This document shows, in pieces, positions 26,946 to 31,018 of a stretch of DNA of 64,000 nt. The DNA is taken from positions 1 to 64,000 of the IMG/VR virus record IMGVR_UViG_3300009788_000006, one strand, 5' to 3'. The notes beneath the pieces are model-generated. The model did no database searches, was not told the DNA's origin, and saw nothing but the letters and a program-made list of their open reading frames with translations. The position numbers and the translations under genes are program-made. Position 1 is the first letter of the stretch. Each line of letters opens with the position of its first letter. The stretch is from a virus.

Positions 26946-27130
26946 GCGCTCATTCTCCTATAGTTGGCCTGCCGTGTTGCCGGGGCGACCGTTGCCCTTT
27001 TGACTTCGTCGAGCACAGAAACCACCATCAGATGGGCATCCGCTCCCTGCTGCGTTGGCGCCACAGCCGCCGAGAGCACGTGATCATCTCGGATCTTGGC
27101 CAGACGTAGCCGCAGGCTTTCGACGGTCAT
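26942..27130 (-). CDS. hypothetical protein
   Basis: MTVESLRLRL ORF with ATGA coupling on both sides. Confidence 0.5.
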   Translation of the reverse strand: MTVESLRLRLAKIRDDHVLSAAVAPTQQGADAHLMVVSVLDEVKRATVAPATRQANYRRMSA

Positions 27131-27450
27131 GGTACCTTGCTTTCGTGCTCTCGCCGCTCGAAGCACCTCCACCCGCCGCACCACCACGGCTCATCCCGCG
27201 GCGTCCGCATACAGGCCAGCTGGCCGCGCTCCCAGCGGTGAGCCACGCAGGTGATGAGGCGCCCGTCGATTTCAGCAGACATCTCCGTGCCTGCTGCGCC
27301 CCGAGCCCATCCGCCGATTTCCTGGATGCCGATTGTCGGCTCCATGTCGCTGTCGAGGACGGCGAGCCGCAGCACCTGACTGGAGCAGCTAGCGAACAAA
27401 AGGCCGAGGAGGCCAAAAACAACGATACTCCTCCGGGCCTCGTCCATCAC
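27127..27450 (-). CDS. putative lipoprotein
   Basis: hydrophobic leader ending LLFAS-C. Confidence 0.55.
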   Translation of the reverse strand: MMDEARRSIVVFGLLGLLFASCSSQVLRLAVLDSDMEPTIGIQEIGGWARGAAGTEMSAEIDGRLITCVAHRWERGQLACMRTPRDEPWWCGGWRCFERREHESKVP

Positions 27451-28016
27451 TTCCCCATAAGGGACTCGTCAATCCCGGGGTCTGTTACGTCGATCCCGGC
27501 GAGGCTCGCGTCTTGCGCAATGCATGGCGGCGTCTTGAGCTCTTCGAGAAGACTGGGACCCTGCGGGATGCCGGGCGCCATTCCAGGATGATCCAGCCAG
27601 CGCAGCAACGTCGCACCGGGATTCGTCCCGACGATGATTTTACAGCCGAACTTGCCGCCTCCGATGCCGATCTTGGTGATCAGCGGACGAAGAGTCAGGC
27701 GGGAGACGAAATACTCCCGAAGCGCTATCCTCGCCGCCGCCCAAATCGAAACGCCGGAAGCGGCAGCATATCGGGGGTCAGACAGAAACCCATGAAGAAT
27801 TGGCCCCATGTAGGTCCAATTGGTCACTACAGCCTTTTCAAATCCGACTCCGGTCTCGTAGTTATCGCGCCAGATCTTGGCTAGAGCACTTCCAAGTTCG
27901 GTATCGGGTTCGTGGTTTGGGGGCGGCTCCACTTCGGTTGTACTGAGGGAACCTAGGTCCACGAACTCGAACGCATCCGCCAATCGATCGAAGCGGATTC
28001 CAATTGTGTCGCTCAT
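27447..28016 (-). CDS. hypothetical protein
   Basis: AAGGAG RBS; 189 aa. Confidence 0.7.
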   Translation of the reverse strand: MSDTIGIRFDRLADAFEFVDLGSLSTTEVEPPPNHEPDTELGSALAKIWRDNYETGVGFEKAVVTNWTYMGPILHGFLSDPRYAAASGVSIWAAARIALREYFVSRLTLRPLITKIGIGGGKFGCKIIVGTNPGATLLRWLDHPGMAPGIPQGPSLLEELKTPPCIAQDASLAGIDVTDPGIDESLMGK

Positions 28017-28039
28017 CGAATATCTCCTTCTAGTCTTGG

Positions 28040-28087
28040 AAAAAAGACGGCCGCCGGAACCCAGGGAGGACCAGTCCGGCGACCGGT
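28040..28087 (-). terminator. hairpin followed by U-run
   Basis: CGCCGGA...TCCGGCG stem then TCTTTTT on minus strand, after the membrane-protein gene. Confidence 0.45.
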
Positions 28088-28096
28088 TTGAGAAGC

Positions 28097-28414
28097 TTAC
28101 TTGTGGCGCGCCGCGGTGGTCATCGGCAACCGGAGCCCGACTCCCTTGCGCTTGTTCCAGATGGCTTTGGCCGCTCCACCGAGGTGCTCAATCGCCTTGT
28201 GTAGCGCGGCAGCGAACGCGCCAAGGAAAAGCGCCAGAGCCGGCGTCACGTTGTCGGCGCCGACCTGGACAAGCATCCAGTTCGCGACCAGCCCGAGCAA
28301 CGGGAGCACGACGGGAACCATCAGCGCTTTTGGGACTTTGCCGACGGCCCAGATCATGATCCAGGCGAGCACGGTGGTCAGACCGGGGATCAGTAACAGA
28401 TTGACCTGTTCCAT
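28097..28414 (-). CDS. three-TM membrane protein (holin-like)
   Basis: GAGG RBS; three hydrophobic segments, basic C-terminus. Confidence 0.7.
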   Translation of the reverse strand: MEQVNLLLIPGLTTVLAWIMIWAVGKVPKALMVPVVLPLLGLVANWMLVQVGADNVTPALALFLGAFAAALHKAIEHLGGAAKAIWNKRKGVGLRLPMTTAARHK

Positions 28415-28429
28415 TTTTTCACCTCAGAA

Positions 28430-29000
28430 GGTTAAAGCGGCTCCGGTCCACCAGCACGCCCCCGACACAACGCCGAGAGCTTCGCGGTCCATCTGAATCC
28501 AGAGCCGTCAACCAGGAGCCGGAGGAGGAACCCGCTACGACCAAGCGAGACACAACCGATGCGGATACTCCGGCCCCTGGTTCAGGGCTCGGCAATTGCA
28601 GGGAGTAGAGCCGCCAGCTGCAAGCCGGGGCGACAGGCGCCAGCCGTCGCACCATCCGACTGAGCCGGGAAGGTCTCCGGCTTGCAGCTCATGGCTCTGG
28701 TCTCGAATCTCTCGCAGCCCCCGAGGGACTTATGCACGGAATCGCCAGCTAACCTTAGACCAGCCGTTACCGATCTACTCTTCGCTGAACACGCCCCTCG
28801 ATTCCCCACCATGCTAACCGGGGCGGCCGGCTTCTCAACCGTGCCGGGGCCTGCCAAAGATTCGAGAATCCGGCTTCTCGAGGACTTCATGACAGCGACC
28901 CCTGGCTCAGCCAGGATTATGCGATCGGCCACGCCGACGTTACTCGCCATTCGTCCGGTCAAGATTGAGCTTTTGCTCCGGGGCCGGTCTCCGGAATTCC
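28430..29000 (-). ncRNA. candidate large structured ncRNA B (~570 nt)
   Basis: no credible ORF; stems 28616-28628/28677-28689 (13 bp perfect), 28510-28524/28568-28582, hairpins 28862-28881, 28901-28915, 28967-28978. Confidence 0.6.
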
Positions 29001-29003
29001 AGA

Positions 29004-29180
29004 CTATCGAAACGCCCCGAGAGGCGTGAAATCCTCCCACCGGTTCCGGTACGGGCTGTTCGGCGGATAGTCGCCGCTGATCTTTCGCGCATAGGCCGAT
29101 CTGCGACCAGGGGCGCTCATCGCGCGCTCCTTGGCGGCCTTCCGTTTTGCTCTTTCCTTCAAACGTTTCTCGCTCTTCAT
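29004..29180 (-). CDS. 58-aa Lys/Arg-rich peptide
   Basis: AAGGGAG RBS; MKSEKRLKERAKRKAAKERAMSAPGRRSAYARK...; absent from ORF track. Confidence 0.65.
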   Translation of the reverse strand: MKSEKRLKERAKRKAAKERAMSAPGRRSAYARKISGDYPPNSPYRNRWEDFTPLGAFR

Positions 29181-29189
29181 GCTGTCTCC

Positions 29190-29940
29190 CTTGGGGATTG
29201 CCGGCCCGTGCTACCGTAGCGGGCCAGCGGTGGGTCGGTTGGGAAGGAGTCACGCCCCTGGTAGCTCGGAGCGGTGAGAAGGCGAGGCCAGGCCCTTGGG
29301 GTCGCGCCTGGAAAACTACCAGGTCTCGGCGGGTCAACGAAACCGCGTGCAAGCCGCAGCAGCGAGGCACCGGATCGATCACTATGGGTAGCTCGCCGAG
29401 GTTGGGCTCGCACACTATCGCCGATGCTTGCGTCGACGATATGCCGGTCGCCCTTTCGCTTGGCGTTGCCGCCAGGCGCGCGCCCAAAGGCCCGCTATTT
29501 AGCTGGCGCTCCAGGAGGCCGCCGCCAACCCTCTCGACCGGAACGGCTGAGAGAGCACATTGCCGACGGCGGTCTGCTGCAACGTCAGAATAGTGACGGG
29601 ATTGCACCGCCCCGCGGTCTCTCACCGCTTGGCCTGGGTTACGACCAGTCCCACGGACACCTCCATCTACGTGCCGCGCGGATAAGGCGCCGTCAGCCCC
29701 GCGCGTACGCCGACCATTGCTCCACCAGGGCGATTTGCCGCTGTCGGTCCTGGTTTCATCGCCTTCACAACGGGCCGCCAGCCTACCGGAGCTTACGCTT
29801 GATCGGTGGTCTCCTCCGGCTCTACCACTCAGCAATGCCAGGCTGTACGGCGACCCTTTCACGCAATGACGCTCCACGCGACCGCCGCTGGCAGGGAGGC
29901 TTTTCCCATGCAATCCGCGGCGGTCGCGTGCAACGTCAGT
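29190..29940 (-). ncRNA. candidate large structured ncRNA A (~750 nt)
   Basis: near-continuous stems; several closed by GNRA loops on the minus strand (GUAA, GAGA, GCAA); 22-bp stem 29867-29888/29917-29938. Confidence 0.7.
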
Positions 29941-30150
29941 CATGCCGCCGCCCAATCGATTGGATTCGTGCGGGCTGGTGTGTAGGCTCCAGTCTAGCGA
30001 CCCCTCGCTCCCACAGGGAACGTCGCAAGCCTCCCAGTCAGCCTCGGGGCTTTCGAAGGTACAAGTCTTGCCGAGGTCCGGCGGTGACCCATCAAGTGCC
30101 GCTATTCCGTCGACGCGAATCACGGCCGCTACGTGTGTCCAGATACTCAC
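29940..30150 (-). pseudogene. N-terminal part of a phage protein (WTHV...PCGSEGSL) running into the structured region
   Basis: first ~65 aa protein-like and coupled by GTGA; the rest of the 522-aa ORF is low-quality R/G/S/P sequence. Confidence 0.45.
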
Positions 30151-30488
30151 GGGTCAACTTCTTCATCTGGTTCTGGGGCAGGCCCGAGAACACTGACTCG
30201 GTCGCCGGGCTTCAGCACGCACTCAGGGCATGGAATCAACGTATCGAATTGGCGATCCGGATCCCGGACGATGAATAAGAAACCGCACTGAGGACACTTC
30301 TTCTTTCTTGTGGGCCGCTGCGGGAATTCGGCGCGCGTCTCCCACCCCAGATCCGCAATCACGAGCCCCCGGACGTAGGCCGAGAACGTCATCTCTCTGA
30401 CCCGGGCCTCTCTCTGTGCATTGCGCAGAATACCGCTCGGCATACTGACGCTGGTCTTGACCGCGGGTCCGTTGGGGTTCGTCGCCAT
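30147..30488 (-). CDS. ribbon-helix-helix regulator with C-terminal zinc ribbon, leaderless
   Basis: KTSVSMP...MTFSAYVRGLV; CPQC...CPEC; TTGACA at 30520-30525. Confidence 0.75.
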   Translation of the reverse strand: MATNPNGPAVKTSVSMPSGILRNAQREARVREMTFSAYVRGLVIADLGWETRAEFPQRPTRKKKCPQCGFLFIVRDPDRQFDTLIPCPECVLKPGDRVSVLGPAPEPDEEVDP

Positions 30489-30577
30489 GCCCTGTATCTT
30501 TTCACACCGCGGGCCGGGGTGTCAAGAACTATTTTCACACCTTCGCCCGTTCTGCCCGTGTGCTACCATCGCCACCC

Positions 30578-31018
30578 ATGGCGGACGATCCCATCCAGAT
30601 AGCACTCCTCGAAGAAGTCAGGAAGCTCATCGAAGCAAAGTTCGCGGCGTCCCAGGCCGCCTCGGAAGCGGCAGTGGAAGCTTCCGAGAACGCTACGACC
30701 GCCGTGGCCGTGATGGGCAAGCAAATCCAAGGCGAGCTCCACGAGCTATCAGACCGGCTTCTGGAGCTTCTCGCGATGATCCGGGAAGACAGGGCACGGG
30801 AGGGAGCGTCAGCTTCGGGTATCGAGGCCATCGCGACTGCCTTCAAAGCCGCCGGCGCCGACCGCGAGAGAATCGGCAAGATCGAAGGCCGCCTCGACGG
30901 CGAGACGCTCCGCTTAGACGGACGCATCGGCAAGCAAGCGATACAGTTGGTAATCATCTGGGGCTTTATCGTCATCTTGGGGCTCAGGGTAGCTGCCGAA
31001 ATCCTGGGAATTCCCTAA
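30578..31018 (+). CDS. coiled-coil protein with C-terminal TM
   Basis: TGC-TACCAT 8 nt before ATG; C-terminal LVIIWGFIVILG. Confidence 0.65.
   Translation: MADDPIQIALLEEVRKLIEAKFAASQAASEAAVEASENATTAVAVMGKQIQGELHELSDRLLELLAMIREDRAREGASASGIEAIATAFKAAGADRERIGKIEGRLDGETLRLDGRIGKQAIQLVIIWGFIVILGLRVAAEILGIP

Follow-up and report, generated by a model that had tools for sequence, protein, structure and literature searches.

What is a 589-nt segment, dense in predicted RNA structure, doing between a mini-ORF and the gene for a small membrane (TM) protein in a phage genome? The DNA analysed here (the window) is the first 64 kb of the 82,021-bp IMG/VR record IMGVR_UViG_3300009788_000006, which comes from an uncultivated phage in a subsurface sample. 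The phage resembles siphoviruses, its genome encoding a major head protein, a tape measure protein, a DnaB-type helicase and an exonuclease, and direct terminal repeats form the ends of the 82,021-bp genome, located away from the segment in question, which we refer to as block B. All credible genes around block B are carried by the minus strand, and the argument below draws on the following features:

27447-28016, minus strand: gene for a 189-aa protein, taken from the list of open reading frames
28097-28414, minus strand: gene for the TM protein, 105 aa with three hydrophobic segments and a charged tail, taken from the same list
29004-29180, minus strand: Lys/Arg-rich mini-ORF of 58 aa with the Shine-Dalgarno (SD) sequence AAGGGAGA at 29185-29192, lying out of frame within the long open frame
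28582-30150, minus strand: stop-free frame of 522 codons (ORF522) with a GTG start, overlapping the TGA stop of the upstream 113-aa gene
29959-30150, minus strand: N-terminal 64 codons of that frame, the first half of a conserved phage family of ~135 aa (family HMM, E 1e-25)
30147-30488, minus strand: 113-aa gene upstream of the long frame

Among ten neighbouring proteins a Pfam or PHROG match was obtained for one, a ClpX-type zinc finger. As the nine proteins without a match include the TM protein, the term holin-like, which the preliminary description had used for its gene, refers to the shape of the protein only. The TM gene has the highest codon score in the neighbourhood (0.375), and its product has one relative, P0087, which shares 72% identity and is encoded on a 1415-nt JGI contig; an identical TM protein, P0086, is encoded by two other contigs. 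For the 189-aa protein no family was found, and neither tblastn against phages nor a search against PDB sequences gave a relative. Two genes downstream of the TM gene, with the 189-aa gene between them, lies a 107-aa ORF (27127-27450, minus strand), whose hydrophobic, signal-like N-terminus ending in FASC we take to be lipoprotein-like. This ORF and the TM protein with its three segments hint at a lysis cassette, the intervening 189-aa protein having no identifiable family. At 30535-31018 the plus-strand ORF 30560-31018 has a codon score of 0.25-0.34 versus about 0 for the minus-strand ORF 30535-30975, and the gene in this region may lie on the strand opposite to its neighbours.

Folding of block B

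Block B (28415-29003) extends from the mini-ORF, which marks its 5' boundary, to the ribosome-binding site of the TM gene (SD GAGGTG at 28420-28425, ATG at 28412-28414), in agreement with the preliminary description, which had placed its end there. Folded as minus-strand RNA it has a minimum free energy (MFE) of -291.8 kcal/mol (z -4.48) as compared to -236.1 kcal/mol (z -2.60) for the plus strand, and 0 of 100 shuffles fold as well on either strand. The minus-strand fold contains 32 G-U pairs, the plus-strand fold 11. In a GC-corrected scan of the genome with 819 windows of 200 nt, minus-strand structure is strongest in the one at 28501 (z -4.13), and each of the four consecutive windows in 28401-28701 has a z of -2.2 or lower. 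The predicted fold is made up of the following parts:

28415-28498, minus strand: 3' linker without significant structure when folded alone (z -0.46 on the minus and -1.21 on the plus strand)
28499-28593, minus strand: dom3, a long irregular hairpin of 5+15+6 bp (MFE -51.7, z -4.61 on the minus and -4.82 on the plus strand)
28604-28700, minus strand: dom2, a 13-bp stem with a 6-bp extension and a small branched tip (MFE -59.9, z -5.35)
28701-28867, minus strand: dom1, a 167-nt multibranched domain with a closing stem of ~23 bp (12+4+3 or more bp; MFE -89.0, z -6.23)
28868-29003, minus strand: 5' hairpin cluster directly after the mini-ORF stop (z -2.25 on the minus and -0.73 on the plus strand)

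The minus-strand z-scores of dom1, dom2 and dom3 range from -4.6 to -6.2, with 0 of 300 shuffles being as good, and each of these domains is predicted to contain a near-continuous helix of 21-26 bp; many helices of the block have a probability (P) of at least 0.95. The block had been proposed to fold independently of its surroundings, and in the model it does, as 180 of the 214 pairs formed by block B alone are kept in a 1.8-kb context, among them all pairs of dom1 (62/62), of dom2 (37/37) and of the 5' hairpin cluster (42/42). These predictions describe block B as an RNA-level unit of the gene strand that folds strongly and on its own. Thermodynamic z-scores by themselves are no proof of function.

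The stems and hairpins named in the preliminary description can be located in this fold. The perfect 13-bp stem (28616-28628/28677-28689, P 1.00) and its AGAGCC/GGCTCT extension (28607-28612/28693-28698, a 6-bp helix, P 0.93) are both present in dom2, and the interrupted stem over 28502-28590 is the 5+15+6-bp hairpin of dom3, whose helices have probabilities of 0.74, 0.99 and 0.85 and whose 15-bp helix abuts the TGA stop (28582-28584) of the 522-codon frame. In the 5' hairpin cluster, the hairpin noted at 28901-28915 appears in the MFE structure as 28900-28916 (7 bp, P 0.73), and so does the one at 28967-28978 (4 bp, P 1.00), which has an AAAA loop and which we take not to be boxB-shaped in the sense of lambda nut. 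Only in part did this hold for the hairpin at 28862-28881: the local sequence is there, but the hairpin is missing from the MFE structure, in which its bases go into the 12-bp closing stem of dom1 and into the helix 28959-28964/28876-28881. The motif GGGGCGT recurs on the minus strand as had been reported, with copies at 28456, 28791, 29012 and 29252. It is not enriched in the window as a whole (10 observed versus 15.7 expected); four of its five minus-strand copies lie within the 800-nt span of the locus, all of them in helix arms with P of at least 0.96. In the 3' linker a 9-bp hairpin is predicted at 28458-28480 (helix 28472-28480/28458-28466, P 1.00).

On the plus strand dom1 reaches an MFE of -57.7 (z -2.80). 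The resulting strand gap of 31 kcal/mol is exceeded in just 1 of 2047 genome windows and leaves a residual z of -3.53 after G+T correction. With a z of -6.2 on the minus strand versus -2.8 on the plus strand, the predicted folding of dom1 is thus RNA-strand specific. In contrast, dom2 (plus-strand z -4.98) and dom3 fold equally well on both strands, so that at the DNA level they are plain inverted repeats. This symmetry would suit an element acting as DNA, with single-strand hairpins for replication priming, packaging or recombination. However, dom1 relies on the G-U pairs of one strand, the block contains neither iterons nor an AT-rich stretch, the GC skew tracks gene orientation with no switch at the block, and the genome ends, being direct terminal repeats, lie elsewhere; we regard a DNA-level role as extremely improbable.

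A stop-free frame in a truncated gene

The 522-codon frame spans block A, the mini-ORF and most of block B (28582-29000). All 84 non-self protein matches of ORF522 are confined to residues 1-88 of the query and are proteins of about 100-324 aa, and, when aligned, these relatives form one family of ~135 aa, in whose second half the motif GDLR is nearly invariant. This family (P0002-P0085) is uncharacterised and widespread in phages, the motifs P-x-G-S-E-G-S and GDLR being invariant or nearly so, and it is absent from Pfam and PHROGs. An assignment to DUF6205, which is found in 26% of the members of one neighbouring Atlas cluster, was discarded as Pfam did not confirm it.

In this phage the family HMM matches at its positions 2-64 only, and it detects no C-terminal half in the six frames of the 82-kb genome, whereas this half is kept by all 8 relatives inspected, 6 of which are longer (180-324 aa). 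Thus, the gene is truncated and not split by an intron. A self-splicing intron or an intein was rejected, as the host gene does not resume (the family HMM finds neither a 3' exon nor a C-extein), no intron RNA model matches and no Pfam domain of the Hint or endonuclease type is present in ORF522 or the other frames. An orphan sequence of ~1.54 kb (28415-29958), of which block B makes up the 3' third, now stands in place of the 3' half of a small, conserved phage gene, with the frame being stop-free for 458 codons. A 22-bp hairpin with 91% complementarity (29867-29938, minus strand) starts ~20 nt from the end of the family similarity (codon 64, ~29958).

ORF522 has 0 stops, as compared to 28 and 23 in the other two minus-strand frames over the same stretch, and when 28415-29958 was dinucleotide-shuffled 5000 times, only 2 of the shuffled sequences reached a run of 458 open codons on the strand in question. 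The start with which the frame is in phase is a real one and is coupled translationally (GTGA overlap), and after codon 64 the first codon position has G and T frequencies (.40 and.138) that equal the gene averages, so that a weak coding-like trace remains. These properties favour a reading in which block B is coding down to 28582, ORF522 consisting of an N-terminal half-domain and an Arg/Gly/Ser-rich, probably disordered tail, and the RNA folding being incidental or tuning translation. Yet the sense-codon score after codon 64 is -0.107 versus 0.249 ± 0.14 for genes and lies within the range of antisense frames, the chi-square for 3-periodicity is 15.3, as compared to 63 for the lowest of 15 gene pieces and 123 for their median, and GC3 shows no elevation. 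Residues 89-522 have no relative among 1.84 billion representative proteins, an Atlas search with residues 65-522 gave no usable match, and the well-initiated mini-ORF overlaps out of frame. Moreover, the N-terminal piece is half of a single fold of ~130 aa, which the eight inspected relatives possess as a whole. We consider translation into such a tail distinctly unlikely.

Searches with 13 ORFs across the frames gave no Pfam or PHROG match at E ≤1 save chance-level rows outside the block. Block B is not an eroded protein gene, an origin that the preliminary description had raised, for none of its frames has a Pfam or PHROG match or a protein relative.

Copies, relatives and the mini-ORF

The orphan sequence is present as a single copy: self-BLAST of 28415-29958 against the genome returned only its own inverted repeats, and a covariance model of dom1, applied to the window and to 56 loci, detected no second copy with E below 1. 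A MITE or palindromic repeat was rejected on account of this copy number, and also because there is no repeat pair that joins 28415-28500 with 29940-29960 and no terminal inverted repeat or target duplication. The translation of 28585-29958 matched nothing in metagenome_contigs, genome_contigs and viral_contigs, and blastn of 28000-30600 against 50,697 phage records gave no relative. Neither DNA nor flanking proteins were shared by 15 loci of the small gene family and 80 loci of helicase relatives (at most 49% identity). No relatives of the TM protein, the 113-aa protein and a 634-aa protein were detected in viral_contigs, and alignment of the TM protein pair against genome_contigs found nothing. 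When two 18-nt pieces of the window were searched in viral_contigs, one was without match and the other matched L098, which was dismissed as a chance match with only 22 nt in common. A literature search returned no description of such a locus.

A search for sequencing runs that contain this stretch returned the source DNA sample as the only one, and no RNA run. The main contig of this source run shows no difference from the window. An MDA chimera or misassembly was rejected, as the stems are not perfect and as an independent assembly of that run, though made from the same reads, is identical over 27400-30500. Another contig of this run, 284 nt long and of depth 3, aligns to 28676-28699 and to 29194-29264, the two matches being separated by 15 other letters, and differs from the window by a net length of 479 nt, which is not a multiple of three. 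It suggests that a co-occurring relative lacks 28700-29193 (494 nt comprising dom1, the hairpin cluster and the mini-ORF), the shorter side of the joint being 24 nt long and sides below 30 nt being flagged as unreliable. That a relative seems to do without these parts speaks for their being dispensable. One break point falls on the boundary between dom1 and dom2, the other just upstream of the mini-ORF SD. Judged by eye, neither of them appears to have an attC core, and an integron cassette was set aside on this visual comparison. A 573-nt contig of the source run matches 28076-28138 only.

These observations bear on the possibility that the orphan sequence is a selfish or neutral hairpin-rich insert in a small gene, moron-like or MITE-like, whose hairpins belong to the element instead of serving the phage, and whose open frame only reflects the survival of insertions that are stop-free and non-polar. 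An insert would fit a host gene that is cut at codon 64 with its second half gone, a low-depth relative that appears without 28700-29193 and breaks at the positions given above, and an orphan sequence without relatives anywhere searched; it would also fit the family-gene loci, in 12 of 15 of which the next ORF follows within 250 nt and no long spacer is present. The single copy and the ends without terminal inverted repeats or target duplications are at odds with it, however, and the strand-specific, G-U-rich fold of dom1 points to selection on RNA. We regard such an insert as a real but doubtful possibility.

The mini-ORF has GC contents of.53/.56/.73 at codon positions 1/2/3. It has a strong SD amid dense structure, and among 39 starts its initiation region ranks first in predicted openness (mean unpaired probability 0.65); a 10-bp helix (29250-29259/29020-29029, P 0.97) brackets almost the whole mini-ORF. 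The N-terminus of the peptide contains a Lys/Arg run in a helical pattern, which we take to resemble arginine-rich RNA-binding motifs, presumably in a manner reminiscent of lambda N and nut. Combined with a fold that is well defined, strand-specific and independent of context, these features speak for a free large non-coding RNA, or an RNP with the 58-aa peptide, that acts in trans or on RNA polymerase, for instance by antitermination ahead of the TM gene and the genes downstream. But no promoter or terminator delimits such an RNA, the promoter (sigma-70, sigma-54), terminator and SD patterns in block B being nothing beyond chance. Furthermore, the mini-ORF has no Pfam or PHROG match and no homologue of 31-102 aa, the apparent relative is without peptide gene and dom1, and no Rfam family was matched. 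We consider a free RNA or RNP unlikely. A more far-reaching proposal, which we judge quite improbable, is that the 1.5-kb locus represents a phage RNA cassette of a new kind, in which the 58-aa peptide is flanked by strand-specific structured RNAs with block B as the 3' partner, forming an RNA-protein device that would control the adjacent membrane-protein (possibly lysis) genes, the frame being kept stop-free so that ribosomes escort the transcript.

At the gathering threshold Rfam 15 gave 5 matches in the window, all of which are tRNAs and none of which lies in block B. With E ≤10, two sub-threshold matches were obtained in 27900-30600 (19.1 bits versus a threshold of 47.9, and 10.1 bits versus 90), only the weaker one being inside block B, and no Rfam model, those of riboswitches, group I/II introns, ribozymes, GOLLD, ROOL and HEARO included, reached E 1 in the block. 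This result also concerns the idea that block B is a giant cis-regulatory leader, riboswitch- or thermosensor-like, which switches translation or transcription of the TM gene. A distance of 5 nt separates the end of the block from the SD of the TM gene, and part of this SD pairs weakly with 28433-28439 (7 bp, 3 G-U, P 0.43), as would suit a leader. However, the predicted fold leaves the initiation region of the TM gene open (mean unpaired probability 0.54, 7th of 39 starts in openness) and the 84 nt at the 3' end are not significantly structured (z -0.46), so that a switch sequestering the SD is unsupported. In addition, the minus strand of the block has no site resembling a terminator and no riboswitch family matches, the best match, that of 19.1 bits, lying outside the block; a leader of this type appears very improbable to us.

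A transcribed spacer and its counterparts in known systems

Our preferred reading, to which we assign a probability of roughly one in three, is that block B may be a cis-acting transcribed spacer of the RNase III processing or stability type ahead of the TM gene. Block B would be transcribed within a minus-strand polycistronic mRNA, between mini-ORF and TM gene, and its two-turn helices would be cut by RNase III or would block exonucleases, whereby an mRNA end would be set or stabilised ahead of the TM gene. Near-continuous helices of ~20 bp or more, the criterion applied for RNase III, are predicted in dom1, dom2 and dom3, and it is from helix length only that we predict cleavage. The dense, G-rich structure may at the same time shield the long non-coding stretch from Rho-dependent termination. 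Protection from Rho by translating ribosomes is textbook polarity, and read-through translation from the coupled GTG might likewise protect the transcript, the stop-free frame possibly being kept for that purpose. We infer transcription and processing of the block as well as the reason for the open frame.

Several observations stand against a spacer: the folding of dom2 and dom3 is as good on the plus as on the minus strand, no homologue was found, promoters or intrinsic terminators beyond chance are absent from the block, the relative appears to be without dom1, the hairpin cluster and the mini-ORF (as judged from a joint with a 24-nt side), and ribosomes that read the open frame down to 28582 would melt dom1 and dom2 in the translated copies.

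Rickettsia palindromic elements and other in-frame intragenic MITEs resemble block B in being hairpin sequences that lie in a reading frame without introducing stops. These elements are about 100-150 nt long and multi-copy, and the host gene continues beyond them, whereas the orphan sequence has 1.54 kb and a single copy, and the 3' half of its host gene is gone. The ShiLan insertion element in methylase genes of actinophages is reported to match neither intron nor intein and to hide an out-of-frame ORF, which encodes an HNH endonuclease, the methylase resuming after the element (PMC11855218). The two cases are alike in that the sequence is stop-free within the host frame, matches no intron or intein and has an out-of-frame ORF inside, and they differ in that the only out-of-frame candidate here is a 58-aa basic peptide without a family and the host gene does not resume (PMC11855218). 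GOLLD and ROOL RNAs share with block B a length of several hundred nt, a location in phages and a multitude of helices. Unlike these, block B has no Rfam model at E 1 and no relatives, and without a family of relatives nothing defines an RNA class.

Block B is real, unusual and so far solitary, being a single sequence from one subsurface sample. If functional, it would be among the largest structured RNA segments in a tailed phage without a described family and an unusual case of a long frame that is kept open without coding-type sequence, and it would be informative on the means by which phages shield long non-coding transcripts from being terminated or degraded. Should it be a selfish or neutral insert, it would still exemplify how a module rich in hairpins can take the place of half a conserved gene without any stop arising.

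Judged by analogy, block B would work most like the intercistronic RNase III hairpins of phages. Such processing hairpins occur in intergenic regions of phage T7 as well as in the N leader and the sib region of lambda. Unlike them, block B has three tandem helices in 589 nt, one being the closing stem of a branched domain of 167 nt; the sequences show no similarity, and cleavage is a prediction. What block B has in common with the T7 and lambda hairpins are irregular helices of about two turns, which lie between the cistrons of a phage mRNA directly 5' of a ribosome-binding site and which would act in cis on mRNA ends and stability.
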